From Tricharina praecox (lineage: Eukaryota), in the NCBI RefSeq assembly GCF_024521635.1, contig NW_026250432.1, positions 62,001 through 126,000 of the forward strand: a stretch of DNA of 64,000 nucleotides. Reading direction: 5' to 3'. The notes below the pieces were generated by a model. The model saw nothing but the letters and a program-made list of their open reading frames with translations, was not told the origin of the DNA and ran no database searches. Numbering within the stretch: position 1 is the stretch's first letter; every line of letters starts with the position of its first letter. This document shows positions 1-59,264 of this stretch, in pieces. Made by a program: the position numbers and the translations under genes.

Positions 1-2672
1 GCTACGAATATCATGTCCATCGACGAAGCGCATAAGGCTCGGGAGCAGGGGGCGAGCATGCGGAGGCTGTCCTGGGTAACAGTAGGTTCCGCCGGTGAAT
101 GTATTTCCGCAATGACGCTGACGGTTTTCAGTTTATATTTTTACCCCTCCTCTTCGTGGCGGTAAGTGGCCTTGAATGCGAAATTTTACCCATCCGCTAA
201 TAATCATGCTAGAGTTTATACGGTATGAATGTGGGTATTCCGATACACCCCCTCACCCCCTCCGAACAACATTGCTAACCTGTAGATTAGGTGGATGCTA
301 CCGAAAACAACCCAACATGGACGACCTTCTTCTACATCGCCGTACCAGTTTTTACCGTCGTTATGTTGAGTGTGTTGATACTTAAGTTCCGCAAGGGGCT
401 CCGGAGTTTCTTACCCAACCCAGCAATCCGCACGAAACGCAACCAGAATAACGGCGGCGACATAGAGAATCAGAAGGCCGAACTTCACAGCATGAGCATC
501 CCCTTGATCTCAGCGATCGAGCAAGATATGGTCGCCGTCGTCGAGCAGTATCTTGTCGAGCGGAGTGACATCGATAGAGACATTCCCGAACGCGGGAATG
601 CACTACAATGTGCGTTGATTGCGGGAAGTTTGGGTGTGACTACCCTTCTTCTGGAAAAGAAAGCGGATGTCAATGCAGCGCCAGGACCATACCGCGGCGG
701 AAGAACCGCCCTCCAAGCAGCATCGGAAGGACGCCACCTTGAAGTGGTGGATCGACTCTTGGAGAAGGGGGCCGATGTCAACGCAGATCCAGCACGTCAT
801 TCCGGAAGAACCGCCCTACAAGCAGCATCGGAAGGAGGCCACCTTGAAGTGGTGGATCGACTCTTGGAGAAGGGGGCTGATGTCAACGCAGATCCAGCAG
901 GTCATTCCGGAAGAACCGCCCTACAAGCAGCATCGCAAGGAGGCCACCTTGAAGTGGTGGATCGACTCTTGGAGAAGGGGGCCACTGTCAACGCAGCGCC
1001 AGCAAGATTTTCCGGAAGAACCGCCCTACAAGCAGCATCGGAAGGAGGCCACCTTGGAGTGGTGGATCGACTCTTGGAGAAGGGGGCCGATGTCAACGCA
1101 GATCCAGCACATGGTTCCGGAAGAACCGCCCTACAAGCAGCATCGGAAGGAGGCCACCTTGGAGTGGTGGATCGACTCTTGGAGAAGGGGGCCGATGTCA
1201 ACGCAGATCCAGCATTTGATTCCGGAAGAACCGCCCTACAAGCAGCATCGGAAGCAGGCCACCTTGGAGTGGTGGATCGACTCTTGGAGAAGGGGGCCAC
1301 TGTCAACGCAGATCCAGCATTTGATTCCGGAAGAACCGCCCTACAAGCAGCATCGGAAGGAGGCCACCTTGGAGTGGTGGATCGACTCTTGGAGAAGGGG
1401 GCCACTGTCAACGCAGATCCAGCATTTGATTCCGGAAGAACCGCCCTACAAGCAGCATCGGAAGCAGGCCACCTTGAAGTGGTGGATCGACTCTTGGAGG
1501 AGGGGGCCACTGTCAACGCAGATCCAGCAAGTCGTTCCGGAAGAACCGCCCTACAAGCAGCATCGGAAGGAGGCCACCTTGAAGTGGTGGATCGACTCTT
1601 GGAGAAGGGGGCCGATGTCAACGCAGATCCAGCAGGTCATCCCGGAAGAACCGCCCTACAAGCAGCATCGGAAGGAGGCCACCTTGAAGTGGTGGATCGA
1701 CTCTTGGAGAAGGGGGCCGATGTCAACGCAGCGCCATCAGATTGGCACGGAAGAACTGCCCTACAAGCAGCATCGGAAGGAGGCCACCTTGAAGTGGTGG
1801 ATCGACTCTTGGAGAAGGGGGCCACTGTCAACGCAGATCCAGCAGGTGATTCCGGAAGAACCGCCCTACAAGCAGCATCGGAAGGAGGCCACCTTGGAGT
1901 GGTGGATCGACTCTTGGAGAAGGGGGCCGATGTCAACGCAGATCCAGCATATGATTACGGAAGAACCGCCCTACAAGCAGCATCGGAAGGAGGCCACCTT
2001 GGAGTGGTGGATCGACTCTTGGAGGAGGGGGCCACTGTCAACGCAGATCCAGCAAGTCGTTCCGGAAGAACCGCCCTACAAGCAGCATCGGAAGGAGGCC
2101 ACCTTGAAGTGGTGGATCGACTCTTGGAGAAGGGGGCCGATGTCAACGCAGATCCAGCAGGTCATTCCGGAAGAACCGCCCTCCAAGCAGCATCGGAAGG
2201 AGGCCACCTTGGAGTGGTGGATCGACTCTTGGCGATGAGGGCCCGTGTCAACGCAGCACCGGCAGGATGTAGAGGAAGAACAGCCCTACAAGCAGCATCG
2301 GAAGGAGGCCACCTTGGAGTGGTGGATCGACTCTTGGAGAAGGGGGCCGATGTCAACGCAGATCCAGCAGGTGATTCCGGAAGAACCGCCCTACAAGCAG
2401 CATCGCAAGGAGGCCACCTTGAAGTGGTGGATCGACTCTTGGAGAAGGGGGCCGATGTCAACGCAGCGCCAGCATATTGGTACGGAAGAACCGCCCTACA
2501 AGCAGCATCGGAAGGAGGCCACCTTGGAGTGGTGGATCGACTCTTGGAGAAGGGGGCCGATGTCAACGCAGCGCCAGAATCTTATTCCGGAAGAACCGCC
2601 CTACAAACAGCATCGGAAGGAGGCCACCTTAGAGTTGGGGAACGGCTACGTGCAGCAGGCGCAACTGAATAA
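1..2672 (+). CDS. CorA-like TM + ankyrin-repeat protein, paralogue 1 (5' part lies outside the window)
   Basis: Manual splicing of exons 1-81, 132-161, 213-230 and 291-2672 gives ...SIDEAHKAREQGASMRRLSWVT-FIFLPLLFVA-SLYGMN-VDATENNPTWTTFFYIAVPVFTVVMLSVLIL, i.e. a CorA-like TM1-GMN-TM2 module. It is followed by 19 GRTALQAASEGGHLxVVDRLLEKGAxVNA ankyrin units with no internal stop. Confidence 0.88.
660..2669 (+). repeat. Coding tandem array of 19 near-identical 105-bp (35-aa) ankyrin repeats
   Basis: GGAAGAACCGCCCTACAAGCAGCATCGGAAGGAGGCCACCTTG... recurs with a 105-bp period. Loop variants in order: YRG, RHS, GHS, RFS, HGS, FDS, FDS, FDS, SRS, GHP, DWH, GDS, YDY, SRS, GHS, GCR, GDS, YWY, SYS. Confidence 0.97.
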
Positions 2673-3178
2673 GGTAGAAGCCATTCCTGGAATCCACTTT
2701 TTCCTGGTTATTAATACTTATTATGATTGACGACAGATTATGCATGTTTCAGATCGGTTTACGACCGGTTAGCGAGATAGAGCGGGTGTTGGTATTCAGG
2801 ATCATCGTGTCCCGTCGATGGATGACGTACGACGATACATTTGTTTTTTTTTTGTACATGCATGATGGATGTCGATATTTTGCCTGTTATCCTCGATCTA
2901 TTGGTTTCAATTTTCTCTTTCTCTCTAAATGCTTTACTATTGTTGGTAATTCGTTTTGTATCAGGTTGTACTGATACTCCCTCACTGCCGCACTACGTGA
3001 GGAATGGGGTTATTGGTGTCTGGATGTGATACTGTCGGAGATGGATAATGAGGTACTTTGACAAACATTGAGCAAGGCGACGAGTGCTTATTTTCTTCCT
3101 CCGGTGTACGTAGCCCACCTTCGCGGGTATCGTAGTGGCGACATGGTATCATACCTATACATGTTGGGGTTTATTCGT
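2673..3178 (+). repeat. 3' flank of paralogue 1, duplicated at 23054-23559
   Basis: About 500 bp matches the flank after paralogue 4 (offset 20,381). By eye only three substitutions were seen, near 3090, 3133 and 3164. Confidence 0.95.
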
Positions 3179-4603
3179 TCAATGCCCAACGTCTTTCAGC
3201 ATACCTATCCGTTTGGGCGTCGAGGTGGAACATCAATGCCAGAAACTGTGACTATAAAAGTTTGGTTGAGATGGTGGAGCTGGCTTGCCGCTGGACTATC
3301 CACGTGATAGAAGGTTCTCTCGAACAGTCTCCCCAACTTAACATCGCACCCTTGGGCCTTGGAGGGATCGCTTGTCTAGCGCCGCACCGCGGCTTTGGGA
3401 CGTCACAATGCGAGCCTATTGGCCTGGCATTTAGCGAGAGCCGGCAATTGACGTAGAGGACTGGGGTGGGTCGGCTACTGACTACTAGTAGCACGTAGTT
3501 CAGCCCGGACGCGACGTCGTCGTTCACCTTCTCGAGATCACGAGGAATATTTGCTATGTATGTAGATGGCAGCCCGTCCGCGTCAGGTTAATTCAAGATG
3601 CGAGGAAATCTTCAGCGAAAACTGGAGACTGGAGACTAGTGCTCATATCCACCTATCATGAGCACGAGAGAGTGAGAGTAAGAGTCGTGGATAATTCTCG
3701 TGCCCCTTCAAGCGACTCCGGCGGCCCGTCGTTCTAGTGTATTGACGTCGCGACACCCGTAGGTAATTATAGAAGGTACCTATCTCAAATACGGAGACCT
3801 AGCAATTCAAATCGAGACCATCCGTTCCGCCTTGGGCACAGGTAATCGGACCTATGGCAGTACCTACTTGAACAAGTACCCATGTATTTACTCACTGGTT
3901 GCCTTTCGTTCCGTCCGGTCGAGAAATACCTATTGGATGGAGCCGCCGTGAAACGTGCGCAGGGCGGTTGTCATAGTTACAAGGTGTGTATCGAGATTCT
4001 ATGCACTCACATCACGAACATAACTCCGCCCTGAAACCTGTGTACATGAGGATTCATGCGAGCTCAAGTTTGCACTGGTATGATACAATATCCCTACCAT
4101 GACCACCTGTTGTTCACCATGTGGTCCCCGCAGCGAATCCGAATACGAAAAAGAATGTCTCTCGGTGTCCTCTGCTCTCATGCAACTTGACTCCGGTTGT
4201 TATCGGTAGGCCAGCCGGCCCGCGTTCTGGCCACTCACCTGGTATGCATTTATGTCCCGTCCCATAGCATTTGTTTGTACGATACTCTACAGACTGTGGG
4301 TAACTGCTACATGACTACTGGTAGCTGGCGTGCATACATGTCTCACTTCTGCAGCGCGAACAAACTGTCAAAATCCCTAAAAGCACATTTTACCTAATGG
4401 ACCATGTACAGCGAACCACGCGTCTCTGTCATCTTTCCATCTCTCCATCTCTCCATATCTTCATCTCCCCGCCACATCGCCCAATAACTACCGGAAGCCC
4501 CCCCCTCCTCACGTATATACTCGACGAATTCGAAACCGGCTTGCACTGCTCTACAGCCCTTTAGCTCCGTATACTTTACCACCAGCGAACCGTGTCGATA
4601 CCT

Positions 4604-7600
4604 ATGAGCTATCCGGTTCCACCTACGCCGCTGCTCATGCAGGTTTGGATTGGCGATCGTCACTGGAAGATCCATACCAGAGAAGATCTGCAAGAGCTAC
4701 TTTGTGAGGTCGACGCGACGGTATGTAGGCTCATCAGGTGTTTGTCGCTGTATCTATGAGCCTGCTGTCCATCGCTGACAAGCATCGTTTGCAAGGACAA
4801 GCCAGGGCTCTTCAAGTTGGTGCCTCCTCCGACTCTACGGGGTACAAGGCCTGGATCTGTTTTCTAACTCCAATCAGCCTCACACCGGATATCGCAGACT
4901 GGCTATTGGACATGCTGTGCCAGCGGTTCGGGAAGCTGTTGAACCAGTCCAATATACCGACTATTCTGGGGGCAGCGAATGTGAGCCGCCCCGCCGGATC
5001 TTTGGGATCTTTGGGATCTCTGGGATTCTCGGCGGCTCAGGAGAGCTCCTTGTGTGACTGCAAAACATGTTTGGAGAATCGGGGGTCGCCTTGTGATATG
5101 TGCTGGATGACTCCCGGGTATTTCCCCTGTTGAACGTCACTGACGGCGAAGCTCGCGGTTCTTGGATACAAATCCCAGCCTACGAAGAGGTGTCAGTGCA
5201 CGAACAATTGGGCGTTTCGAAACAACCGCCCGAGGGAGGCCACTCCCTATTGGTGGATATCAAGTCTGACGACGAGAAGATGACCTTCTACCCTTCATAG
5301 CAAGCGCCCGACTTTGAAGGCCATCACGCAAAGCTGACGACCGGAAGCCGTACGTTTATTCGGCGAGAACGTTTCGTGTTCTACTGCCTGACCAACGGAG
5401 CTGGCAGACTGTTTTTCTTCAACACACGCTGGAAGAATACCGAAGCCAGCCGCCGACGTACGACTACGCCCGCAGCGCTTCTGGCCAGTTGTCTCAACGA
5501 TGTGTGCGATGACTGGGATAAGCTCATCAAATGCTATCGGCAATTGTTGTCCGACGCGGTGAGTCCTCCGTTGCGTGTTTCGGCGAGCACAATTCTCACG
5601 TCCACGGTAGAGCAAACGTATCCTGAGCGAGGGCGAACTGAACTCTCGACGCTTCATCCGCTCTTTGGTTATTGTTGCCGATAATGCCACCCGACTGGAA
5701 TCTGCACAACACGAGCAGATGCAGAGCATCGAGGCTTTGATGACGAACGGTGGTGGGACGCAGTGGTTTCGACCGCTGGTGAGCAACGTTTGGGGTGAGG
5801 GGAGAGAAGAGTACCTTGGCAATTTAGAAGGCGATGAAGCCAAATTGTGCCGTTCCGATCTCGCGAAAGCAACAGACCGGCTTGCAAAAGTTGGCGAAGC
5901 CATAGAAAGCGGATTGAGTAAGAGGATTGATTTATTGTTTCAGAGGGTATGCCAAACATCCGCACTTCCGCAGGCTTCGTCTAATCTTTCTGCGCGAAGG
6001 CTTCCAATATCGTTTCCATCGACGAGGCATCCAAAGCTGGAGAGCAGAATACTAGTATCAAGAGATTATCCTGGATTACTGTAAACCCATCCACCGCAAC
6101 ACTCTCTTGGACTGGCTAACCATATGAAATGTGGTCAGTTCATTTTCTTGCCGTTGCTTTTCGTATCTGTAGGTTACACTTCGTCCGGAAAAATTTGCGA
6201 ACTGCCATCTAATTGTACGATAGAGTTTATACGGAATGAACGTCGACTTGGTTGCAAACAACCTCAATGGACCACATCTTTCTACATTGCGGCACCAGTG
6301 TTTGCCGGCGTGATGCTGACGGTGATTTTCCTAAAGTACCTACGAGAGCCAAGGCAGAAATTCACCTCGAGGCTTATCCATGCCGTGTCCGAAATCACGA
6401 AACGGTTTCGGTTAGGAAAGTCCAAGAACGCCGACGAAGAAAACCAGGTCACCTCTACGGCCGTAGACCATCGGTATAAAGGATCCTTCTTTCTTGCGCT
6501 GCGCTCAGGACACCGGGTGACAGCCGGAAATCTGCTCGAGGTCGGGGTTGTCGACGGAACCTAGCATGACGGGAGAAAGACGGGTTTGCAATATGCCGCT
6601 GGCTAAGGCTACAGCGATATTGTGGAACGATTGTTGGCGATGGGTGCCGATGTCCACGCGAAGCCTTTTCCGGATGGCGGTAGGACCGCGCTGCAAGCTG
6701 CAGCGGAAGGCGGCCACCTTGCAATAGTGAAGCGACTCCTAGAGCATGCGGCTTACGTCAACACGGCACTGGCACAATGCGATGGACGGACAGCCCTACA
6801 GGCAGGCAGCATCGGAAGGAGGCCATATCGAAGTGGTAAACGAGCTCTTGGAAAATGGGGCCGATGTCAACGCAGCACCAGCGGATCGTGGAGGAAGAAC
6901 AGCCGTGCAGGCGGCATGTGGGAGAGGCCATCTCGCAGTGGTTCGAAGGCTCTTGGAAGAGGGAGCTGAGGTCGCCGCGGCCCCAGCAAGAAGGGGAGGA
7001 TGGACAGCCCTACAGGCTGCATCGGAAAGAGGCCACCTTGAAGTGGTGAATCAACTCTTCGAGAAGGGAACCGAGGTCAACGCACCGCCGGCACAACACG
7101 GCGGAAGAACAGCTCTCCAGGCAGCCTCGGAAGGAGGTCACCTTGAAGTTTTCGAACGGCTGCTGGGAGAGGACGCGGAGGTAGCCGCGGCAGCTGCGGG
7201 AAGGAGAGGGAGAACAGCCCTGCAGGCAGCATCGGGGAGAGGCCACCTTGCAGTGGTAAATCACCTCTTGGCTAACGGCACCGAGGTCAACACAGCCCCA
7301 GCAGAACACCACGGAAGAACAGCCCTACAAGCAGCATCCGAAGGAGGTCACCTTGCAGTAGTCGGGCGGCTCTTGACAAAAGAAGCCGATGTCAACGCAG
7401 CGCCAGCAAAACACGGAAGAACAGCTCTACAGGCAGCATCTGGAGGTGGACATCTTGTAGTAGTCGAGCGGTTGCTGAGGAATGGGGCCACTGTAAACGC
7501 AGATCCAGCGGCTTGCGAAGGAAGAACAGCCCTGCAGGCAGCATCCGGAGGTGGCCACCTTTCAGTAGCGGACCGTCTCTTGGAAAAGGGAGCCGATGTC

Positions 7601-9064
7601 AACGCAGCTCCAGCGGAAGAACTCGGACGGACAGCCCTACACGCCGCATCGGAAGGCGGCCATCTTGCCCTCGTCGAGCGACTCCTGGATAAGGGTGCCG
7701 ATGTCAATACAGAGCCAGCTGGGGATAATGGAAGAACTGCCCTGCAGGCAGCATCGGAAAGAGGGCATCTTGCAATAGTTGACCATCTGCTGGAGAATCG
7801 AGCTGAAGTTCAAGCGGCACCAGCAAGGACGAAAGGAAGAACGGCTCTGCAGGCAGCATCCGAAGGAGGTCATCTTTCGGTGGTGCAACAGCTCCTGGAC
7901 TCGGGGGCCAAAGTTAAAGAATTGCCGTCCAGCTCGGGCAGAACAGCCCTTCAAGCAGCATCGGAAGGAGGTCATCTGGCGGTAGTGAATCACCTCCTGG
8001 TGAACGATGCTGAGGTCAACGCACCGCCAGCGCAACCGGAAGGTCGAACAGCCTTACAAGCAGCTTCGGAAGGAGGCCACCTCGAGGTACTGAACCGACT
8101 CCTGGAGAAGGGGGCCGATGTCAATGCCGCACCCACAGCAGCACGCGGAAGAACAGCTCTACAAGCAGCCTCGGAAAGAGGTCACCTCGAAGTCGTCGGT
8201 CGACTATTGGAGGAGGCGGCCGAAGTCAACGCAACGCCAGCTGAACTTTACGGACGAACGGCTCTCCAGGCTGCGTCTGGAGGAGGCCATCATGCTGTCG
8301 TGGATAAACTCTTGGAGAAGCAGGCCGAAGTCAACGCAGCGCCAGCAAGATGGGGAGGAAGAACGGCTCTACAGGCGGCATCCGGAGGAGGCTATCTTGC
8401 AGTAGTTAATCAACTCTTGGAGAAGCAGGCTGATGTCAACGCAGTGCCGGCGGAATCCAAAAGAAGAACCGCCTGGCAAGCCGCATCGGAAGCAGGCCAT
8501 CTTCGAATAGTGGAGCGGCTCCTGAAGAAGGGGGCTAATGTTAATGCAGCCCCAGCAGGCGACGGCGGACGTACGGCTCTGCAAGCAGCATCGAAAGGAG
8601 GCCATCGCGCGGTAGTTGAGCGGCTTCTCAGAAAGGGAGCCAATGTCAACGCTGCCCCTGCAAACTCCGAAGGACGAACAGCTCTACAGGCAGCATCAGA
8701 AGGAGGCCATGTTACAGTAGTCGAGCGACTCTTGGAGAAGGGGGCCGATGTCGATGCCGCGCCAGCAGAATACGGACGAACTGCGCTACACGCAGCATGC
8801 AAAGGCGGGTATCTTGCCATTGTGGAGCTGCTCATCGTGCACGGGGCTAAAATCAACGCCGCACCCTCGAACGGGGGACGAACGGCGTTACAGGCAGCAT
8901 CGGAAGGAGGCCACCTGGGAGCAGTGAATCGATTGCTAGAGCACGGCGCCGATGCCACTGCTGCGGCAGCAATATATGGCGGGAAAACAGCCCTGCAAGC
9001 AGCGGCGGAAGGAGGCCATAAGGCAGTCGTCGAACGACTGACTGATCGGGGCGCAACCAAGTAA
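4604..9064 (+). pseudogene. CorA-like TM + ankyrin paralogue 2, disrupted
   Basis: ATG at 4604 (MSYPVPPTPLLMQVWIGD) is homologous to the starts of paralogues 3 and 4. FIFLPLLFVS/YGMNVDL module at ~6140-6260, then ~23 divergent ANK units. Lesions: in-frame TAG 6562 (Trp in paralogues), TAA 6604, 4-bp duplication frameshift near 6800-6807, and an apparent GT>AT donor loss at 5096. Confidence 0.82.
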
Positions 9065-10403
9065 TGTGCGTTCGGCTCTGGAATCCCTTCCTTCCCAGTC
9101 ACCGGTGTCCATACTAACTTCCGGTTCGGATTGTAGATCCCAGAAGCCGCCGACAGGGCCGACAACGAGGCTGTGCACCAGCTAGATGAGGTTATGGTGG
9201 TATGCGACGTCACTTTGTTCTGGCTCGCGATTAGATACGGATGACGGCCGACGAATGATGATTTTGGTAGCTTGTTTCGTTGTTCCGCGGGCGATGATAG
9301 AGGATGATGTTGGGTTCTTTTTCCGGATTTATCGGTTTAATTTTTATATTTTCCCTCTCGAAATGATAGGAAAGGGCTTTTCTGCACTGATATGGTACTA
9401 ATAATGCTGTTTATTCCTTTCGTATTTTTAGTCTGTCATGTATCTACATGGTGTTTATTGCTGAATCCCGACTCTGTCAAGGCTCGGGGAGATGTTTATC
9501 CCGATTATACTGGTTTAGAATAGGTAGCCTATCTGCGGGTTGCGGAAGTATATGGTCTTCCGAATCCAGAACATCACGATGCTTTTGTCGATGCGAGAAT
9601 GGTTACAAGAAAACGCTGGATGTGGGCGTCTGCGGGTATCACTGTCGTTTGCTACCACCATGAGAGGAGCACAGTATGCTAGGATAACGAGATTGGGGAT
9701 CTGATAAGATACCTAGGAGGATGTGAGGCTGTCAGCCGTACTAGCCGGATTGGTTGACACCGAACGTTTTAGGCGGCTGAGGAGAGCCAAAGTACTGGAG
9801 TAGATGGCCCTTCGAAGTTCAATACAACCTCAAGTTCTTCATCATCTTTCGTTTTCGCCGCCTACCTTCCAAGGCTACGTCAAGCATCCCTAACGCTCAC
9901 GATAGGCAGCTAAGTACCTGGGTACTTGCGCTGTGTCGAGTCATGGCGCAGTCGAAAACCCGCAACCACGGTACAAGGTAGAAGGAAATATATGTTCTCG
10001 AGGCGCTGGTGCGCCCAATCAAGTCCAAAGTTCAGATTCGGCACCCACCAGATTACTGTATGGGCTGAGTCAACTCCGCTCTGGCTGTGCGATAAGTCGA
10101 CAGCTGTGCCGCACATGTATCTACCATCTACATACATATAGGCAGTACTCTCTGAGCAGGGACCCGGGAACCTCGCGTCTATAGTATTGCCGTCTCCACC
10201 TCTCCGCGCAACACTAACTTTCCCGCATAGGTTCCGGTAGTGAAGTAATTATCGGCCGCTCTCGGATTTCACGCACTGCATATACTAATTCAAGCTCGAC
10301 TTCAAGGTCGCCCTGCCTGCGCCCAAGAGAAGAACCGTCAGTTGGGTAGATAGGTATCTTTCGACTGTTAGTCACGCCCTCTGGCTGCGACAGCATTCCG
10401 GAA

Positions 10404-13400
10404 ATGAGCCATTCGCCGAGCTCTGGTACGCCACCTGTTATGGAGGTGTGGCTGGATGAACGGCTCGTGGAGATTCGTACTAGGGAAGACATGGAAGCAG
10501 CGCTTTCTCAGGTTGATGATTCGGTATGTATAGTACGTGTAAATACGTGGCGACTTGCTACTATCTACTATGTAGTATCTACCGTATATCGCTGATACAC
10601 ATCCTTTATGTAGGAGTTGGACGATAAACTGGTTCTCTTCAAGTGGGTTCCTCGATAGTAAAAACTTATCTAGGTCTACATATGCTGATCAGAAACAGCT
10701 ACTCACAGGACGCTCCACACTGGTTGTTGGACATACTCTACAGACGCTTCGGGGCACTGTTGAACGGATCGCAAATACCGGCGATTTTAGGATCGGCATA
10801 TGTCAGCCGGCGTGGCGAGTCTTTGGGGTTTTCGGCAGGCAGTGGAAGTTCCTCATGTGTCTGTGAACAGTGTTCTGGAGATCCCAAGACCACCTGCGGT
10901 ATGTGCAGGATTGTTTCGGGCATTGGGATACCTACATCGCTCACGAAACAATCCGTGGTTCGTGGGCAAAAATTCCCCACAACTTCAGGTGGCAGTGCCC
11001 GGCGGCCGCGGAGGCAACAGAAGTGTCGCGAAGAAAGAGCGGGAGGCTCTGGGCGCCCGACTGGTAGACATATCGTCAGATGAGAAAACGATTACCTTCT
11101 ATCGTTCAAAGTGAGTTATACTACTATTCAGAAGTCATCCACGATCTGAGCTGACGACAGGTTGGAGACGCCGATTCAGTCGCCGGGAGTGTCTGGTCTT
11201 CTATAGCATTGCCGCCGGTGGTAGACCGTATCACTTCAATCCACGATGAAAGTACTCTGAAAGCCGGACCGGTGCACGTATGCCGCCTACACCTACCTCA
11301 CTTTTGACTTCTTGTCTGAGTGGTGTATGCGATAGTTGGGATACCCTCATCGACTGCTATAAGCAACTGTTGTCCGACGCAGTACGTTTTCCGTTCAAAC
11401 CCGAGTTATGTCGCGGTTTCCACGTTGGCCCCGCTTTGGTCAACGCCGGCGCCGCCAACTAATGATGATTACGATTGCTGAGGTCCAAATTCATATAGAG
11501 CAAACAGATCTTGAGCCAAAGCGAACTGGACTGTCAACTCTTCATTCGATCCTTGGTTACTGTTGCCGACATAGCAACCCGGCTCGAGATCGCGCAGCGG
11601 GAGCAAAGTGGGAGCATTGAGGCCATACTACTAGCCACGGACGGGAGTAGTATGACTCGGAAGTGGTATCCGCCTTCGATGACAAACGAGGGCGCAACGC
11701 AAGAAGTACGGAAGGAGGAGGACCCTAGTAGCGACCTGAACAGAGCACTGGAACAGCTGAAAAATAACGCCGCCGTTGTACAAACGAATTTGAGTGAGAG
11801 GGTTGATGTCTTGATTCAGAGGGTAGCATTGGACGCCCACTCTTCGCAGGGATTCTTCTAATAATCCTGTTCATACTTAGTCGTCCAACATCGTGTCAAT
11901 CGACGAGGCTTGCAAAGTCAGAGAGCAGAACGCCAGCATCAAGAGACTATCATGGATTACCGTAACTTCACCACTGCTCCAATATTCCATGCCTCACTAA
12001 TCATTTCTGTCTATTAGTTCGTCTTCCTGTCGTCTCGGTGGGCCCCTATCTTATACCGGTATATTCGGAAACTTTGAGAGTTGCTTTCTGATCACTGCAA
12101 TTGTATAACAGAGTTTGTACGGGATGAATGTCGACTTGCTTGCAGACAACCCGCAGTGGACCAGCTATTTCTACATCGCCGTACCAGTATTTCTAGCCGT
12201 GATTTTGACCGTGGGTTTCCTAAAGTATCTCCGAGGTCCACTGAGAGAATTCAGCGAGATGTTCTACAACGGTATACCTACGATTTCGCGAATTCAGGGG
12301 GGAAAGTCCAAGATTCCGGATGAGGAAAACCACATTTCTTCCGCAACCGCGGATCCGAGATATAAGGGGCCATTCATCCATGCAATCGGCTCGGGCCATA
12401 GTAGCATGGTTCACGATCTCCTAACCGCCGAAGCTGTGGACATTAATTGGAACGATGGGAAAATGGCGGCATTGCAATATGCAGCAGGCTTTGGAGACGG
12501 TGCAATGGTCGAGCAGCTTTTAGCGATGGGCGCCGATGTACATGCCAACCCACAGCCGAACGGTGGAAGAACGGCTCTTCAGGCAGCATCGGAAGGAGGG
12601 CATCTTGCAATCGTGAAACGGCTCTTGGAGAAGGGGGCCAATGTCAATGCAGCACCTGCAAAATCCGAAGGACGAACAGCCCTGCAGGCGGCATCGGAAG
12701 GAGGCCATATTGCAATAGTAGAGCGGCTCTTGGAGAGAACGGCGGATGTCAATGCGGCCCCTGCAAGATACGGAAGAACGGCCCTCCAAGCAGCAGCTGA
12801 TGGGGGGCACCTCATAGTAGTGGAACGGCTATTGGCGATGGGGGCCCGTGTCAACGCAGCACCGGCAGGATGTAGAGGAAGAACAGCCCTACAAGCAGCA
12901 TCGCAAGGAGGCAACCATGCCGTAGTGGAACTGCTCTTGGATAATGGAGCCAGTGTTAACGTGGCGCCAGCTGAAATCGAAGGACGAACAGCCCTACAAG
13001 CAGCTTCGGAAGGAGGCCATCTTGCGGTAGTGGAACAGCTCTTATTGAAGGGAGCTCATATCAATGCAGCACCAGCACGATCCGAAGGGCGAACAGCGTT
13101 ACAAGCAGCATCGGAAAGAGGCCACCTTTCAGTAATTAAGCGGCTCTTGGAGAATGGGGCCGATGTCAACGCAACACCAGCCGATCGAAAAGGAAGAACA
13201 GCACTACAAGCGGCCTCGCAAGGAAATCACCTCTTGGAGAAGGGGGCGCATGTCAACGCGGAGCCAGCAAAATCAGAAGGACGAACAGCCCTACAGGCTG
13301 CATCGGAAAAAGGCGATCTCGCCATAGTGGAGCGGCTGCTGGAGACAGGAGCGGATGTCAACGCAGCGGCGGCAGAATGGTCGGGAAGAACCGCCCTACA

Positions 13401-14395
13401 AGCAGCATCCGAAAGAGGCAACCTTTTCATTGTAAAGAGACTCTTGGAGAATGAGGGAGATTCCAACGCCGCACCAGTAAAACTCGGAGGACCTGCACTA
13501 CAAGCAGCATCGGAACGAGGCCATCTTGCTGTAGTGAAAAGACTCTCGGAGAAGGGGGCATATGTCAACGCAGCACCTGGAGAATGTAAAGAGGGAACAG
13601 CCCTACAGGCTGCGTCGGAAGGAGGCCACCATGCAGTAGTTGAACAGCTCCTGGAGAGTGGGGCCAATACGAATGCAGCGCCAATAGAATGGTCCGGAAG
13701 AACAGCTCTCCAAGCAGCATCGGGCAGAGGCCATCTTTCGGTGGTGGAGCGACTCTTGGAGAATGACGCCGATGTCAATGCGGCGCCAGCCAGATTCGAC
13801 GGAAGAGCAGCCCTACAAGCAGCGTCGGAAGGAGGTCACCTTGATGTAATGGAGCAACTCTTGGAGAAGGGGGCCGATGTCAATGCCGCACCAGCAGAGT
13901 ACGGGAGAAAAGCTCTATAAGCAGCATCAGAAGGAGGTCATCTTGCGGTAGTGGAGCGGCTTCTGGAGAGTGGAGCCAATATGAATTCAGCGCCGGCGGA
14001 ATGGTCCGGAAGAACCGCCCTCCAAGCAGCATCTGGCGGAGGCCATCTTGCAGTGGTTGACCGACTGTTGGAGAATAGAGTCGGTTTCAAGGCCCCGCCA
14101 GCAAGATTCAACGGAAGGACAGCCCTGCAAGCCGCATCGGCAGGTGGCCATCTTGCGGTGGTGGACCGACTCTTGGATAGGGGGGCGGATGTCAATGCAG
14201 GACCATCAGTCTGAAGAGGAACCGCCCTACAAGCAGCATCATCAGGCGGCCACCTTGTCATAGTGGAGCAGCTCTTGAAGAAGGGAGCCGATGTCAATGC
14301 CATCAGACTGGGGAAATACAGCCTTGCAAGCAGCATTGAAAGGAGACCATCTTGCGGTAGTGGAGCGGTTACGCAAAGCAGGTGCCACAACGTAA
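10404..14395 (+). pseudogene. CorA-like TM + ankyrin paralogue 3, disrupted
   Basis: Start MSHSPSSGTPPVMEVWLD; LYGMNVDLLADNPQWTSYFYIAVPVF module; ~18 divergent ANK units. Lesions: TGA 11247 (Trp in paralogues), shortened TM1 exon near 12020-12040, partial repeat deletion near 13230, TAA 13918 (CAA in other units), TGA 14212 and a frameshift near 14310. Confidence 0.82.
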
Positions 14396-15049
14396 GAAGG
14401 TGCGAACCATCTCCAGAAAGCCTTCTGTTTCCCAGCTTTGGATTCTGATATCATGCTCGCAGAGATTGAACTGACCGTCGACTGCTTTGACGACGATAGA
14501 ATGTGCGTGATCAAGTGGGTGTTGATGTACGGGATTTATCATTAATTGTCGGTGGGATATCGGAGGATAACTGACGATGGGATTATGGGTTTCTTTTGGT
14601 GAATATATGGATCATGGATGACTAGAATTTGCTCGCGTTACCTTACTCACTGAACTCCAACTTCGCTATCATCATGCATTATCACCCGATGGCATGCTTC
14701 GGATTGACTGTCGGAAAGTATGAATGAATACCTAGTGTATTGAGAGAGTCTGAAGGCCTCGGGAGAAAACATAAAAGTGGGGTGGTAGGTGGCCAGTGCT
14801 CCTACCGCCGTCATGATCACGCAATGAACGACCAAGTAACGGACGAGTAAGGAGCGAACGACTCGATATTACAACATTGACCTCAGCTATTCCTATCAAT
14901 TGGCGCAATTCACCTCCGTCGGGACTACAGTCGGGTCTTCCTACCATGAATGGATGCTGTTCGTCAATCCTTGCCTTGGTCTTGCTGGTGATCTCGCTGA
15001 CGACGACTTGCAAACGTAAATACCTTCGCGAAACAATGATTTCAGTTTA

Positions 15050-18050: not shown

Positions 18051-21000
18051 ATGAGCCATCCAAACTCGCGCACGCCACCTGTTATGGAGGTATGGCTAGG
18101 CGACCAGCTTTTAGAGATCCATACCCAGAAAGATCTAGAAGGGGCGCTTCGTGAGGTCGACAAGCCGGTATGTATAAGTGCTTGCATAAGTACTTATCGT
18201 CTTGCTGTTCATCGCTGATGCACTCTTTAGGGTTCGCAGGAAACCTTAGTTCTCTTTAAGTGAGTACCTCCTCAATTATGAGTACTAAATCCTGGATGTA
18301 TATACTTACCCAACATAGCTACACTCAGGACGGCCCTGACTGGTTGTTGCACGGACTATTCAGACGTTTCGGAACGGTGATGAGCGACTCCCGAATACCA
18401 GTGAATTTGGTATCGACGTTTGTGAGCCTACGTGACGAGTCTTCGGGGTTCGCGGCAGGGCATAGAAGCTCCTCATGTGCCTGTGAAAAATGTTCTGGCT
18501 ATTCTAAGACCCCTTGTGGTATATACTAGATTGGCTTGGGGTATTGCTCAGGACATCGCTAACTCAACAGTCCGTGGTTCTTGGACAAAATTTCCAGCTT
18601 ACGAAGAGGTGGATTACCCAGAAGAGGTGAGGCTGGACGACAAACATGTTTCCAAAAAACAGCGGAAGGCTCTTGACGCCCAACTGGTACATATCAGTCC
18701 CGATGAGAAGATAATAACATTTTATCATTCAAAGGCAAGCCCAGAAGGCTCTCGCGAAAAGCCGACGATTAAAATGCGCCAATTCATTCGCCGGGAGCAC
18801 CTAGTCTTCTATAGCCTTGCCGTTAGTGACGACCGAGAGTATCACTTCAACCCACGTTGGAAGTACACTGAAAACCGACCCGCGCCTACACCTACACCCA
18901 CAACTCTTCTGACTTCTTGTTTGAACGTTGTTTGCGATGATTGGGACAAGCTCCTCAACTGCTATAAGCAACTGTTGTCCGACGCAGTAAGTGCTCTGTT
19001 ACCTAAGAACTATCTGCAACGGATGAGTTTCTGATGTCCGCGTTAGAGCAAACAGATCTTGAGTCAAAGCGAATTGGATTGTCAACTCTTCATTCGGTCC
19101 TTGGTATCCGTTGCCGATATAGCCACCAGGCTAGAGGTCGCGCAACGGGAGCAATGGGGGAGCATTGAGGCCATGTGCAAAGACGGGAGTATGCCGAAGT
19201 GGCAACGGCGCCTACACAACGAGGACACAACGGCAGAAGTACGAGAAGGGAACTCGATCGAGCTGGGAAGCGACGACGCAACGCGGGTACGAAAAGCAGG
19301 CTCTACCGACTTGGAGAAAGCACATGGACGTCTTAAAGGTCTCGCTGAGATCATAGACACCAATTTAAGCAAGAGAGTTGATGTCTTAATTCAAAGGGTA
19401 TGAAAAGTTCAGCCTAACAAAAGGTTTCTTCCAATAACCTGTGCATAGTCATCCAATATCGTGTCCATCGACGAGGCGTACAAAGCTAGGGAACAGAATG
19501 CGAGCATCAAAAGACTATCATGGATTACAGTAAATTCACCAATCCAATGTCCCCGAGCCTGACTAACCATACGCACTGCCAGTTCATCTTCTTACCATTG
19601 CTATTCGTATCGGTAAGCAACATTACGTCCAGAAAAACTTGGGGAGTCGCTTTTCTGACCGACCAACAGAGCTTGTACGGGATGAACGTCGATTTGCTTG
19701 CAGACAACCCCCAATGGACTACATATTTCTACATTGCGGCACCGGTATTCGCGGGCGTAATGTTAGCGGTGGTTTTCCTAAAGAATGTTCGGAATTCAAA
19801 GCAACCATCCACATCGAGGTTCTTGAAGCCCATGTCGAAACTTATTACAACGGGATTGAGGTTAGGAAGAAAGACACAGATTCCTGACGAGGAAAACCAA
19901 ATACAACCTTCCTCAGCCGTGAACCACAGGTATAGAGTACCATTCGTTCACGCTATCAGCTCACGCCACAGCGGAATTGTTCGGGATCTCTTAAGTACTA
20001 ACGCTGTGGATGTGAACTGGAACGACGGCAAAATGACAGCATTGCAATATGCAGCGAGCTATGGCCACAGTGATAATGTGGAAAAACTTTTAGCAATGGG
20101 CGTTGATGTGAACGCAAGTCCACAAAAGGAGGGTGGAAGGACCACGCTTCAGGCAGCATCGCAAGGAGGCCACCTTGGAGTGGTGGATCGACTCTTGGAG
20201 GAGGGGGCCACTGTCAACGCAGATCCAGCAAGTCGTTCCGGAAGAACCGCCCTACAAGCAGCATCGGAAGGAGGCCACCTTGAAGTGGTGGATCGACTCT
20301 TGGAGAAGGGGGCCGATGTCAACGCAGATCCAGCAGGTCATTCCGGAAGAACCGCCCTCCAAGCAGCATCGGAAGGAGGCCACCTTGGAGTGGTGGATCG
20401 ACTCTTGGAGAAGGGGGCCACTGTCAACGCAGATCCAGCAGGTCATCCCGGAAGAACCGCCCTACAAGCAGCATCGGAAGGAGGCCACCTTGAAGTGGTG
20501 GATCGACTCTTGGAGAAGGGGGCCGATGTCAACGCAGCGCCATCAGATTGGCACGGAAGAACTGCCCTACAAGCAGCATCGGAAGGAGGCCACCTTGAAG
20601 TGGTGGATCGACTCTTGGAGAAGGGGGCCACTGTCAACGCAGATCCAGCAGGTGATTCCGGAAGAACCGCCCTACAAGCAGCATCGGAAGGAGGCCACCT
20701 TGGAGTGGTGGATCGACTCTTGGAGAAGGGGGCCGATGTCAACGCAGATCCAGCATATGATTACGGAAGAACCGCCCTACAAGCAGCATCGGAAGGAGGC
20801 CACCTTGAAGTGGTGGATCGACTCTTGGAGAAGGGGGCCGATGTCAACGCAGCGCCAGCATATTGGTACGGAAGAACCGCCCTACAAGCAGCATCGGAAG
20901 GAGGCCACCTTGAAGTGGTGGATCGACTCTTGGAGAAGGGGGCCACTGTCAACGCAGATCCAGCAGGTCATTCCGGAAGAACCGCCCTACAAGCAGCATC

Positions 21001-23053
21001 GGAAGCAGGCCACCTTGGAGTGGTGGATCGACTCTTGGAGAAGGGGGCCACTGTCAACGCAGCGCCAGTATCTTATTCCGGAAGAACCGCCCTCCAAGCA
21101 GCATCGGAAGGAGGCCACCTTGGAGTGGTGGATCGACTCTTGGAGAAGGGGGCCGATGTCAACGCAGATCCAGCACGTCATTCCGGAAGAACCGCCCTCC
21201 AAGCAGCATCGGAAGGAGGCCACCTTGGAGTGGTGGATCGACTCTTGGAGAAGGGGGCCACTGTCAACGCAGATCCAGCAGGTCATCCCGGAAGAACCGC
21301 CCTACAAGCAGCATCGGAAGGAGGCCACCTTGAAGTGGTGGATCGACTCTTGGAGAAGGGGGCCGATGTCAACGCAGCGCCATCAGATTGGCACGGAAGA
21401 ACTGCCCTACAAGCAGCATCGGAAGGAGGCCACCTTGAAGTGGTGGATCGACTCTTGGAGAAGGGGGCCACTGTCAACGCAGATCCAGCAGGTGATTCCG
21501 GAAGAACCGCCCTACAAGCAGCATCGGAAGGAGGCCACCTTGGAGTGGTGGATCGACTCTTGGAGAAGGGGGCCGATGTCAACGCAGATCCAGCATATGA
21601 TTACGGAAGAACCGCCCTACAAGCAGCATCGGAAGGAGGCCACCTTGAAGTGGTGGATCGACTCTTGGAGAAGGGGGCCGATGTCAACGCAGCGCCAGCA
21701 TATTGGTACGGAAGAACCGCCCTACAAGCAGCATCGGAAGGAGGCCACCTTGAAGTGGTGGATCGACTCTTGGAGAAGGGGGCCACTGTCAACGCAGATC
21801 CAGCAGGTCATTCCGGAAGAACCGCCCTACAAGCAGCATCGGAAGCAGGCCACCTTGGAGTGGTGGATCGACTCTTGGAGGAGGGGGCCACTGTCAACGC
21901 AGCGCCAGTATCTTATTCCGGAAGAACCGCCCTCCAAGCAGCATCGGAAGGAGGCCACCTTGAAGTGGTGGATCGACTCTTGGAGAAGGGGGCCACTGTC
22001 AACGCAGCGCCAGTATCTTATTCCGGAAGAACCGCCCTCCAAGCAGCATCGGAAGGAGGCCACCTTGGAGTGGTGGATCGACTCTTGGAGAAGGGGGCCG
22101 ATGTCAACGCAGATCCAGCAGGTCATTCCGGAAGAACCGCCCTCCAAGCAGCATCGGAAGGAGGCCACCTTGGAGTGGTGGATCGACTCTTGGAGAAGGG
22201 GGCCACTGTCAACGCAGATCCAGCATTTGATTCCGGAAGAACCGCCCTACAAGCAGCATCGGAAGGAGGCCACCTTGGAGTGGTGGATCGACTCTTGGAG
22301 AAGGGGGCCACTGTCAACGCAGATCCAGCATTTGATTCCGGAAGAACCGCCCTACAAGCAGCATCGGAAGGAGGCCACCTTGGAGTGGTGGATCGACTCT
22401 TGGAGAAGGGGGCCGATGTCAACGCAGCGCCAGCATTTTATTCCGGAAGAACCGCCCTACAAACAGCATCGGAAGGAGGCCACCTTGGAGTGGTGGATCG
22501 ACTCTTGGAGAAGGGGGCCACTGTCAACGCAGATCCAGCAGGTCATTCCGGAAGAACCGCCCTCCAAGCAGCATCGGAAGGAGGCCACCTTGGAGTGGTG
22601 GATCGACTCTTGGCGATGAGGGCCCGTGTCAACGCAGCACCGGCAGGATGTAGAGGAAGAACAGCCCTACAAGCAGCATCGGAAGGAGGCCACCTTGGAG
22701 TGGTGGATCGACTCTTGGAGAAGGGGGCCGATGTCAACGCAGATCCAGCAGGTGATTCCGGAAGAACCGCCCTACAAGCAGCATCGCAAGGAGGCCACCT
22801 TGAAGTGGTGGATCGACTCTTGGAGAAGGGGGCCGATGTCAACGCAGCGCCAGCATATTGGTCCGGAAGAACCGCCCTACAAGCAGCATCGGAAGGAGGC
22901 CACCTTGGAGTGGTGGATCGACTCTTGGAGAAGGGGGCCGATGTCAACGCAGATCCAGCAGGTCATTCCGGAAGAACCGCCCTCCAAGCAGCATCGGAAG
23001 GAGGCCACCTTAGAGTTGGGGAACGGCTACGTGCAGCAGGCGCAACTGAATAA
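18051..23053 (+). CDS. CorA-like TM + ankyrin-repeat protein, paralogue 4 (apparently intact, ~1535 aa)
   Basis: Manual exons 18051-18167, 18231-18259, 18319-18518, 18571-18986, 19047-19397, 19449-19529, 19583-19612 and 19670-23053 are all GT-AG and stay in frame. They encode IDEAYKAREQNASIKRLSWIT-FIFLPLLFVS-SLYGMNVDLLADNPQWTTYFYIAAPVFAGVMLAVVFL followed by 28 GRT(A/T)L ankyrin units. Confidence 0.85.
20130..23050 (+). repeat. Coding tandem array of 28 105-bp ankyrin repeats
   Basis: Same consensus as 660-2669. Loop order: KEG, SRS, GHS, GHP, DWH, GDS, YDY, YWY, GHS, SYS, RHS, GHP, DWH, GDS, YDY, YWY, GHS, SYS, SYS, GHS, FDS, FDS, FYS, GHS, GCR, GDS, YWS, GHS. Confidence 0.97.
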
Positions 23054-23559
23054 GGTAGAAGCCATTCCTGGAATCCACTTTTTCCTGGTTATTAATACTT
23101 ATTATGATTGACGACAGATTATGCATGTTTCAGATCGGTTTACGACCGGTTAGCGAGATAGAGCGGGTGTTGGTATTCAGGATCATCGTGTCCCGTCGAT
23201 GGATGACGTACGACGATACATTTGTTTTTTTTTTGTACATGCATGATGGATGTCGATATTTTGCCTGTTATCCTCGATCTATTGGTTTCAATTTTCTCTT
23301 TCTCTCTAAATGCTTTACTATTGTTGGTAATTCGTTTTGTATCAGGTTGTACTGATACTCCCTCACTGCCGCACTACGTGAGGAATGGGGTTATTGGTGT
23401 CTGGATGTGATACTGTCGGAGATGGATAATGAGGTACTTTGACAAACATTGAGCAAGGCGACGAGTGCTTGTTTTCTTCCTCCGGTGTACGTAGCCCACC
23501 TTCGCGGGTATCGCAGTGGCGACATGGTATCATACCTATACATGCTGGGGTTTATTCGT
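23054..23559 (+). repeat. 3' flank of paralogue 4, near-identical to 2673-3178
   Basis: Direct sequence match that ends at ...GGGTTTATTCGT. Confidence 0.95.
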
Positions 23560-24236
23560 CGTAACGGTAGATTTTACCTGCCGAGTTTCGCGACGACGGA
23601 AAGTGCAAGATCGAGTGGGTGTTCGTCCGTCAGATGCAGATTTCTTTGCGAATGGATATTGCCGAGTGACGGCGATGAAGGGTGATTTCCTTAGTGTTTA
23701 AGGATGATGAATGACTACATTTTATGCTCTCCCTCTCCGGAACCCTCTAAATGCGGGGTTTTGCACGGGGTTTTCGTACTACGGCTACTGTGTATGCACG
23801 CATCGTATTCAAAATTAGTGAAGGAAGAGGTTATTTGAGAATGCGGAGGCCGTATGTGAATCGATTTGGGTCGACGAACGTTGCAGATGGAGAACCTTGC
23901 GGTGTTTGGTGCAATAGGTTATCGTTTTATCTGTGTATGATATCTGTGAATGATATCCGATGGGAAAATGCTGAGAAAGGGTGACCGGAGCGTGGTTGGG
24001 AGTTTCATAGGTTTCTGTGAGCAGGACTCATTCATCGGTTCCTCAGCACCGGCAGGCTTCCTTTGAACTTTTTGCCGCCTGTGCTCAGGCCAGTCACACT
24101 TCACATCCCGAGTACAGCCAGTAACTATTCTCCTCTCGAACCAAAAAAAAGCACAACATTATGTATAACCCCAGTGCACACGCTCAAGTACAAGTACAAT
24201 CCTCCTATATCTATGCAACCCAATGTGACCAAGCAC

Positions 24237-26519: not shown

Positions 26520-26791
26520 TTTCGGATTGGGAAGCTGTTCGTGTTTGGGACGCGGCCAGGGAGAACGTGACTGAGCTAAGGACATGGGGCATATTTTTAC
26601 ATAAGCCACATCCGGCCGTGAATTGAGAACACCCTGGTCTCCCGAGTCCCAAACGCCGATCTTGCGAGCTAGGGCAACAAAAGATGCATGGACTTTCGAA
26701 TGCCCATGCTTGTTCACATAATCGCACCCGTCAAACAGTCAACTTCAACCCCCTCTATTCATGGTATCTACGTTATATACACAAATCGGAT

Positions 26792-58600: not shown

Positions 58601-59264
58601 CGCCCTCAAGAAGCAGGAGTGGATGAATTCCGGCAAGGTCGACGAGCTGAAGAGCCTCTTGGTCGACATGAAGAAGAACGGGGACCGCGTGCTGGTTTTC
58701 AGCCAGTTCACGCAGGTCCTCGACGTCCTCGAGATGGTGCTCACCACTCTCGATATGGGATATCTTCGGATCGACGGGAGCACCGCGGTTGATGCCCGCC
58801 AGGACCTGATCGACCAGTACCACCAGGAGACCGACATCATGGTTTTCCTGTTGAGCACCAAGGCAGGTGGCTTCGGCATCAACCTGGCCTGTGCCAACAA
58901 GGTGGTGATCTTCGACAGCTCCTTCAACCCCCACGACGATGCTCAGGCGAGCGATCGTGCCCATCGTGTCGGTCAGACGAGACCCGTAGAGGTCATCAGG
59001 TTTGCTCACCCATTCCTTTCCTTTTCCTTCCTTTTTGCAGAACGCTAACATCAAATCAGACTGATCACGAAGGGCACGATCGAGGAGCAAATCCTCCAGC
59101 TTGCGAACACCAAGCTGGCTCTTGACCAGAGTATCAGCGAGGGGGACGAAAAGGCCATCGAGGGCAAAGGGGAGGAGCTGGTGGCGAAGATGTTGCTGCA
59201 GTCTACTGCAGCAACTTCCACCACCAGCCCTCTCGCGGCGAATGACGAGGAGAAGAAGGAGTAG
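55655..59264 (+). CDS. FUN30: SNF2-family chromatin remodeler Fun30/SMARCAD1
   Basis: LKDYQVAGLNWL, ILADEMG|LGKT, DEGHLLKN, LLTGTPLQNNLQEL, FLLSTKAGGFGINL, DRAHRVGQ; CUE-like region in the N-terminus. Confidence 0.9.

Follow-up and report, generated by a model that had tools for sequence, protein, structure and literature searches.

How do two genes of one tandem cluster come to share almost the same repeat array and 3' flank behind strongly different N-terminal parts? This question is raised by a 64,000-nt stretch of Tricharina praecox DNA (contig NW_026250432.1, positions 62,001 to 126,000 of the forward strand; hereafter the window, to which all coordinates refer), which carries four tandem paralogs on its plus strand, named copies 1 to 4 in the following. 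Each of them encodes a CorA-like membrane module, consisting of a first transmembrane segment (TM1), the motif YGMN and a second transmembrane segment (TM2), followed by ankyrin units of 35 residues. A first-pass annotation of the sequence had proposed that a recent gene conversion or unequal crossover grafted one sensor array onto a different effector module, in analogy to the shuffling seen in fungal NLRs. Here, we find that copies 1 and 4 form a mosaic whose shared part is bounded by sharp breakpoints, and we consider it probable that a block comprising array, cap, stop codon and the start of the 3' untranslated region (3'UTR) was recently transferred between the paralogs in a non-reciprocal fashion and then rearranged. 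The four copies, of which only copies 1 and 4 retain open reading within the window, are:

Copy 1: ends at 2672, plus strand; 5' part cut off by the window start
Copy 2: 4600..9064 (start approximate), plus strand; degenerate array with frameshifts and in-frame stops, apparent pseudogene
Copy 3: 10392..14395 (start approximate), plus strand; degenerate array, frameshift in the TM1 exon and in-frame stops, apparent pseudogene
Copy 4: 18051..23053, plus strand; intact gene of eight exons

Shared array and flank, divergent N-terminal parts

The sharing at the 3' end, which had been described as near-identity of the array end, the cap and about 500 bp of flank at an offset of 20,381, was readily reproduced with all of its listed elements: of the 571 sites compared between 2608-3178 and 22989-23559, 3 are different (3090, 3133 and 3164), all of them transitions with A or T in copy 1, and blastn across the array-end/flank block gives 99.1% identity over 579 nt. 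These three positions are also the only differences between copies 1 and 4 in the 506 nt past the stop codon (99.4% identity), a flank that has no further match elsewhere in the window. The similarity stops within one base at 3178/3179, corresponding to 23559 in copy 4. Repeat-induced point mutation was considered as the cause of the flank differences and was set aside, three sites being too few for a judgement. The features that make up the shared block and its borders are the following:

699..2588, plus strand: copy 1 array, 18 full 105-nt units, from Tandem Repeats Finder (TRF), unit table and distance matrix
2589..2672, plus strand: copy 1 C-terminal cap and stop codon, 2 mismatches to the copy 4 cap
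2673..3178, plus strand: copy 1 3' flank common with copy 4, family-type 3'UTR; 15-nt motif at 2776-2790, breakpoint at 3178/3179
20135..20162, plus strand: left junction zone of copy 4, comprising ~28 nt at the start of unit 1, copy 3-like
20135..22969, plus strand: copy 4 array, 27 full 105-nt units
22970..23559, plus strand: copy 4 cap, stop codon and copy of the 506-nt flank; 15-nt motif at 23157-23171
23560..23640, plus strand: truncated second 3'UTR behind the copy 4 breakpoint; 15-nt motif at 23609-23623
12832..12903, plus strand: copy 3 array stretch agreeing at 71 of 72 nt with part of the 'GCR' unit, matching 2229-2300 and 22610-22681
14509..14523, plus strand: 15-nt motif in the copy 3 3'UTR, 114 nt past the stop codon at 14393-14395

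The terminal units and the cap are indeed shared, as had been noted. However, more than the array end is shared, and the whole arrays of copies 1 and 4 draw on one pool of units. Counting the cap, copy 1 has 19 units and copy 4 has 28, that is, 18 and 27 full units of 105 nt, respectively. TRF reports a period of 105 with 92% matches and 0 indels for copy 1, and 91% matches and again 0 indels for copy 4; for the arrays of copies 2 and 3 the values are 66-71% matches and 2-5% indels. Units of copy 1 and units of copy 4 are on average 92.3% identical in DNA to each other (486 pairs); inside a single array the mean is 92.1%, both for copy 1 (153 pairs) and for copy 4 (351 pairs). An identical 105-nt twin exists in copy 4 for 7 of the 18 full copy 1 units, and the distances of all copy 1 units to their nearest copy 4 units sum to 28 of 1890 nt. 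At the level of whole arrays, copies 1 and 4 are 92.5% identical, while identity to copies 2 and 3 amounts to 72-74% (74% between copies 3 and 4). Sharing of this extent in array and flank cannot be due to chance. When the arrays are placed in register from the 3' end, the mismatches per unit are 2 in the cap, 6 in unit 18, 1 in unit 17, none in units 16 and 15, and then 4 and 9; a collinear, near-identical block therefore begins at about 2169.

The region ahead of the array differs as strongly as the first-pass annotation had stated. From the stalk exon to the array start, which is 1-698 in copy 1, copies 1 and 4 agree at 309 of 636 aligned DNA positions (48.6%), whereas copies 2 to 4 are mutually 63-68% identical, in line with the described resemblance of the copy 4 N-terminal part to copies 2 and 3; copy 1 and copy 3 share 45% in their pre-array DNA. 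At the protein level, the pre-array parts of copies 1 and 4 are 41% identical overall and 28% identical past TM2, and copy 4 is closer to a protein from Arachnomyces (51%) than to copy 1 (41%). A maximum-likelihood tree was calculated from six rows of pre-array protein, namely copies 1 and 4, exon 8 of copy 3, and the homologs P0008 (Pyronema omphalodes), P0009 (Arachnomyces sp. PD_36) and P0010; copy 2 was omitted owing to its frameshifts. In this tree, copies 4 and 3 group together with support of 96/96, and copy 1 takes no settled place among the homologs from other fungal classes, branching as deeply as those of Pyronema and Arachnomyces. Forcing copies 1 and 4, a test group chosen once the array data were known, into one clade costs 11.7 log-likelihood units and is rejected by the approximately unbiased (AU) test (p 0.011). 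The relationships of the two gene parts, whose agreement had been named as an argument against a graft, are thus in conflict: array identity groups copies 1 and 4, the pre-array tree copies 3 and 4. Array and flank have a history that differs from that of the pre-array part and is much younger.

Both borders of the shared block can be recognized in copy 4. On the left side, 6 of the 11 differences of its unit 1 from the consensus fall within the first 28 nt, in a stretch common with the first unit of copy 3, and past these ~28 nt the unit tracks the shared consensus. On the right side, sequence past the stop codon is alignable between the copy 3 3'UTR and the shared flank, and to a weak degree also with the 3'UTR of copy 2. 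The 81 nt past the copy 4 breakpoint again resemble such a sequence: BLAST against the copy 3 3'UTR gives 30 of 38 identical positions (E 1e-5) and a second collinear match, and semi-global alignment yields identities of 69% (copy 3) and 72% (shared flank), values reached in 0 of 300 shuffles in each case. The alignment of this post-breakpoint sequence to the copy 3 3'UTR begins at about +55 to +66. Copy 4 hence carries a duplicated 3'UTR. The remaining comparisons stayed at chance level: the observed score was reached by 157 of 300 shuffles when sequence past the copy 1 breakpoint was compared with copy 3, by 141 of 300 for the shared flank and the region behind copy 2, and by 100 of 300 for sequence past the copy 4 breakpoint and copy 2. 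A 15-nt motif supports the same layout. It occurs at four sites in the window (2776, 14509, 23157 and 23609) where 0.04 would be expected, is located 104 nt past the stop codon in copies 1 and 4 and 114 nt past it in copy 3, and is found a second time in copy 4, 50 nt past the breakpoint; downstream of copy 2 no site with at most one mismatch was detected. The motif may be a candidate regulatory or processing element of the 3'UTR.

Mechanism, direction and competing explanations

A transfer of the kind that we favour could have occurred by ectopic gene conversion or synthesis-dependent repair, in which sequence of one paralog would have taken the place of almost the entire array, together with cap, stop codon and 3'UTR start, in the other, with a copied tract reaching 506 nt beyond the stop. 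Copying would have started from homologous pairing within the first repeat unit (~20153-20163 in copy 4) and would have ended where a non-homologous join led into the native 3'UTR of the recipient, about 55-66 nt from its beginning. Subsequently, both arrays would have been rearranged by in-register duplication, deletion and hybrid formation of units, leading to 19 and 28 units, and short patches would also have been swapped with the decayed copy 3. Of the two events named in the first-pass annotation, it is the recent non-reciprocal one that is best supported. A plain reciprocal, unequal crossover is ruled out because both parental 5' parts as well as copies 2 and 3 persist and the homology ends 506 nt past the stop; such a crossover would have deleted or duplicated copies 2 and 3 and equalized the downstream sequence for many kilobases, neither of which is seen, which argues for non-reciprocal copying.

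Traces of later rearrangement are found in both arrays. Unit 9 of copy 1 has 1 mismatch to unit 2 and 4 mismatches to unit 3 of copy 4 and may be read as an in-register hybrid of the two. Copy 4 contains an internal tandem duplication of eight units (20240-21079 and 21080-21919) with 4 mismatches in 840 nt, 630 nt being identical, and its units 3-8 are identical to units 11-16; this duplication would be either very recent or an expansion introduced by the assembly. An odd 'GCR' unit common to the arrays of copies 1 and 4 (2169-2273 in copy 1) includes a 72-nt patch that agrees with copy 3 at 71 positions in surroundings of only ~75-80% identity. Exchange between the copies may therefore be ongoing, with the decayed copy 3 as a potential donor of variation.

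If a transfer occurred, we lean towards copy 1 as the donor and copy 4 as the recipient, because the shared block contains a complete family-type 3'UTR and a truncated second one begins at the breakpoint in copy 4; positions 23560..23640 may be read as the remnant of copy 4's own 3'UTR. Since the similarity ends at the same base in both copies, the donor would likely have been copy 1 itself rather than a third locus.

Contigs from metagenomes bear on whether the two 3' ends are real. Five metagenome runs from two studies contain part of 2673-4600, and four runs of one study (X1 to X4) were compared over 2590-3700. In X1, which is possibly the source of the window, a single contig of 3040 nt spans 2590-3700 across position 3178. 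In the soil-metagenome run X2, one contig covers 3084-3178 with three other letters (listed: T>C at 3133); its continuation has 198 letters, the first 30 of which equal the sequence past 23559, and another contig of the same run covers 3163-3462 with zero differences. Both 3' junctions are accordingly present in one sample, and the suspicion that one 3' end is an assembly chimera, as raised with the first-pass annotation, does not hold for them. Contigs from X3 and X4 cover the flank in part.

Further differences were noted in these runs. An X3 contig has, at 2608, the cap joined to a last unit whose hypervariable tip is different, which hints at strain variation in the arrays, and an X1 contig lacks one letter at 2878 relative to the window. 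The two differences might reflect either strain variation or, alternatively, a length error of the window.

Several points weigh against a single transfer from copy 1 to copy 4. The evidence on direction consists of ~80 nt at roughly 70% similarity plus a motif derived from the same sequences. The order of blocks differs between the arrays, with the FDS block preceding the SRS-to-YDY block in copy 1 and following it in copy 4; a single transfer is therefore insufficient unless it was followed by rearrangement or accompanied by several exchanges. X1 displays just the copy 1 form of the flank, and some strains may be without the copy 4 form, although contigs drop variants and a form missing from X1 is no evidence of its absence. 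The short-read contigs break inside the array and copy 4 has 630 nt of perfect repeat, leaving the arrays, with the order and number of their units, possibly misassembled in part. The support by contigs is confined to the 3' junctions, and the 5' part of copy 1 lies beyond the window. Finally, the shared flank is 71% identical to the copy 3 3'UTR (0 of 300 shuffles), as close as the supposed remnant in copy 4, and could instead be native to the clade of copies 2, 3 and 4. The last point leads to the reverse direction, in which array and flank would be native to copy 4 and were copied into copy 1. It is in agreement with the occurrence of similar 35-residue units and caps in copies 2 and 3, P0008 and P0009, and with a flank that is closer to copy 3 than the 45% of the pre-array DNA of copies 1 and 3 would suggest. 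Copy 4 would, however, natively need two family-type 3'UTR segments, the second of them truncated and starting exactly at the breakpoint, and nothing comparable is found past the copy 1 breakpoint; we thus regard this direction as unlikely.

It is conceivable, if less so than the favoured transfer, that no single graft took place and that units have been exchanged continuously since the paralogs arose, the flank having been carried along by one small event. Long-term concerted evolution of this type would explain why identity between the arrays equals that within them, why the block order differs and why a 72-nt patch is common with copy 3, and such behaviour is described for Podospora's NWD gene family (PMC1805685). 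Yet the arrays of copies 2 and 3, the sisters of copy 4, are internally conserved to only 66-71% and 72-74% identical to the pool, and homogenization is therefore not general in the cluster; furthermore, the boundaries in copy 4 unit 1 and in the 3'UTR resemble the ends of one replaced block. Continuous exchange overlaps with the favoured transfer, and the difference between the two is the number of events. An erroneous join of array end and flank to a second gene during assembly is improbable by comparison. Assembly is difficult for arrays that extend over 2-3 kb, have identical 105-nt units and contain 630 nt of perfect repeat, and window and X1 contig differ in length by one letter at 2878; against this, the flank copies differ at 3 positions and run into different unique sequence, both continuations are present in X2, whose copy 4-type contig has the three letters off the copy 1 reference (T>C at 3133 being listed), and the hybrid unit 1 of copy 4 is not something that an assembler would invent. 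That the whole gene was recently duplicated and its N-terminal part then diverged very rapidly, as the tandem arrangement and the same layout might suggest, can practically be dismissed: a non-coding flank at 99.4% would stand next to pre-array coding and intron sequence at 48.6%, the intron content differs, copy 4 is nearer to the Arachnomyces protein (51%) than to copy 1 (41%), and the AU test rejects a clade of copies 1 and 4.

The CorA-like module, the ankyrin units and the cluster

The proposal of different effector modules does not apply to the N-terminal parts of copies 1 and 4, which are CorA-like paralogs of the same layout, and the roles as 'sensor' and 'effector' that were assigned to array and module would be functional guesses. 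The gene models are as follows:

1..81, plus strand: copy 1 exon truncated by the window start, last 27 codons upstream of TM1; equivalent to copy 4 exon 6
132..161, plus strand: copy 1 TM1 exon of 30 nt (FIFLPLLFVA) with GT..AG boundaries; equivalent to copy 4 exon 19583-19612
213..230, plus strand: copy 1 short exon SLYGMN with the CorA signature GMN
231..290, plus strand: copy 1-specific intron right behind GMN, where copies 3 and 4 are uninterrupted
291..698, plus strand: copy 1 TM2, linker and two degenerate ankyrin units, strongly diverged
18051-18167, 18231-18259, 18319-18518, 18571-18986, 19047-19397, 19449-19529, 19583-19612 and 19670-23053, plus strand: the eight exons of copy 4, with splice sites read from the sequence

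The truncated first exon of copy 1 was likewise read from the sequence, and its translation aligns with copy 4 and P0009. If left unspliced, 231-290 leads to an in-frame stop, and if spliced, the product can be aligned with copy 4 and P0009. Ank_2 matches 291..698 weakly, below the curated cut-off; in copy 4, positions 19490-20200 give profile matches to Ank_2 (72.5 bits) and Ank (41.1 bits).

The motif YGMN is located between the short TM1 exon and the hydrophobic TM2 in all four copies, and the hydrophobic stretches flanking GMN, which are putative transmembrane segments, can be aligned with their counterparts in P0008 and P0009. These two proteins (956 and 670 residues) reach 63.6 and 63.1 bits, respectively, on the Pfam profile PF01544 CorA (gathering cut-off 27) and have C-terminal ankyrin repeats of the same 35-residue type; their annotation is just 'ankyrin repeat-containing domain protein' or 'hypothetical protein'. 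The spliced N-terminus of copy 4 is 36% identical to residues 92-556 of P0009 (E 2e-71), and identities of P0008 and P0009 to the copy 4 query region are 32-43%. The assignment of the window genes to CorA is thus based on the GMN motif and on homology to proteins passing the Pfam threshold, because single-exon translations of the window gave no match to the CorA profile at E values up to 0.1. Pfam searches revealed no NACHT or NB-ARC domain in the exon translations of copy 4 or in full-length P0008 and P0009, and therefore the family is, as judged from its domains, not one of NLRs.

The homolog P0010, a Logan-derived fragment of 954 residues, begins at the GMN exon and has a long array of diverse, ordinary ankyrin repeats instead of conserved 35-residue units; CorA-like modules of the family therefore occur with differing ankyrin tails. 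Word-based searches gave nothing among longer proteins with the exon 4 frame of copy 4 as a query, and likewise nothing with the pre-array part of copy 1. In an exhaustive search of representatives, exon 5 of copy 4 obtained seven matches, three of which are short single-exon fragments of relatives; the other four are presumably coiled-coil noise.

As proteins, the units of copy 1 are on average 85.8% identical to one another (153 pairs, 630 residues), and those of copy 4 86.4% (351 pairs, 945 residues). Both arrays hence exhibit high internal conservation in the sense of Dyrka et al. (2014; PMC4986451), namely more than 85% identity between units over at least 100 residues, and those of copies 2 and 3 (66-71%) do not. 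Among the 45 full units of copies 1 and 4, 14 of the 35 codons are invariant even in their nucleotides. Columns 33, 34 and 35 display 7, 8 and 5 different residues, respectively, and columns 15, 26 and 30 alternate chiefly between two residues. In P0008, the most variable columns are likewise 30 and 33-35. An AlphaFold model of 20030-20869 (pLDDT 83.1, pTM 0.81) predicts two helices per 35 residues and places the variable columns 32-35 in the long inter-helix loop between repeats. The region of this long inter-repeat loop belongs to the usual binding face of ankyrin proteins. According to this model, the variation of the array is chiefly confined to three or four predicted loop positions per unit.

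With respect to the two decayed genes, copy 2 has lost 1 nt right behind GMN and has two stops in frame around 6562-6606 as well as a frameshift around 6750-6800; in copy 3, the TM1 exon is frameshifted and the array is interrupted by stops. From these lesions, both copies look like pseudogenes, unless the lesions are sequencing errors. The cluster is adjoined by housekeeping genes, namely ORC3 (minus strand, convergent with copy 4), a Sec1-family gene, NPL4 and a SNF2-family helicase, in the following regions:

24358-28099, 40392-41936 and 57609-59048: housekeeping neighbour regions

Together with GT..AG introns of ~50-63 nt, these neighbours show the window to be, by its sequence features, a chromosome region of a filamentous fungus. 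A Pfam scan of the larger open reading frames in the window gave no hint of a transposon-rich region.

Comparison with known systems

With regard to architecture, the nearest relatives of the window genes are P0008 from Pyronema omphalodes and P0009 from Arachnomyces sp. PD_36, which have the same layout and the same type of 35-residue unit. As in the magnesium channels CorA, Alr1 and Mrs2 (PF01544), GMN is located between two C-terminal transmembrane helices, which are putative in the genes described here. To our knowledge, canonical CorA proteins end shortly past TM2, whereas the window genes continue behind TM2 with a long, predicted cytosolic array of 19-28 ankyrin units. A narrow full-text search of the literature yielded no paper describing CorA-ankyrin fusions.

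An ankyrin array fused to a membrane domain is also found in wheat Lr14a, Arabidopsis ACD6 and the ankyrin-rich TRP channels. In an article on such ankyrin-transmembrane proteins, the membrane domain is proposed to be a cation channel in race-specific recognition (PMC7878491). However, the membrane domains of these proteins are unrelated to that of the window genes, and their arrays are N-terminal. In addition, that article reports no sequence variation for Lr14a (PMC7878491), whereas the array described here is hypervariable. Plant ankyrin-transmembrane resistance proteins such as Lr14a can thus be regarded as a functional analogy only.

Closer parallels exist to the repeats of fungal NLRs. 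Paoletti et al. (2007) describe WD40 units of the Podospora NWD family that are up to 100% identical between loci and concerted evolution that includes pseudogene loci (PMC1805685), and Dyrka et al. (2014) extended high internal conservation to ANK and TPR arrays (PMC4986451). NLR-like proteins account for 60-70% of the highly internally conserved repeats in dikarya (PMC4986451), which leaves room for carriers other than NLRs. Similarly to the WD40 repeats of the nwd/hnwd genes of Podospora anserina and the ANK and TPR repeats of fungal NLRs, the arrays of the window include units up to 100% identical between loci and vary in unit number (PMC1805685; PMC4986451). In the fungal NLR repeats, diversity is concentrated at few positions per unit and pseudogenes take part (PMC1805685; PMC4986451), and the counterparts at the present locus are the 7 of 18 identical units, the hypervariable columns 33-35 and the 72-nt patch common with copy 3. 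Here, too, repeat distances conflict with the tree of the non-repeat part, which is the type of criterion employed by Paoletti et al. The analogy to fungal NLRs drawn in the first-pass annotation consequently fits as a parallel in repeat shuffling (PMC1805685), but does not extend to the genes themselves, which have a CorA-like membrane partner and a 35-residue unit instead of a NACHT or NB-ARC domain. Another difference is that the exchange described here extends over 506 nt of the 3'UTR and that its right junction is non-homologous, neither of which was met in the compared portions of the fungal NLR literature.

It might tentatively be speculated, with doubt prevailing, that CorA-ankyrin genes constitute NOD-less fungal receptors for non-self recognition or immunity, in which the hypervariable array would bind a ligand and gate a CorA-type cation channel, and that copying of whole arrays between distant paralogs would renew the repertoire, with decayed tandem copies serving as donors in the style of pseudogene-templated systems. 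If the array were indeed a recognition surface, recognition would be coupled straight to an ion channel, which would represent a simple and testable receptor design. The event described here is unusually readable, as both ends of the block can be placed within tens of bases and a leftover 3'UTR would mark the recipient. Fungal NLRs are proposed to diversify through the exchange of highly conserved repeats among loci, and here the same engine would be acting on a CorA-like chassis without a nucleotide-binding domain. Thus, the closest precedent is the concerted evolution of repeats between fungal NLR loci, and what sets this locus apart is the CorA-like membrane carrier.

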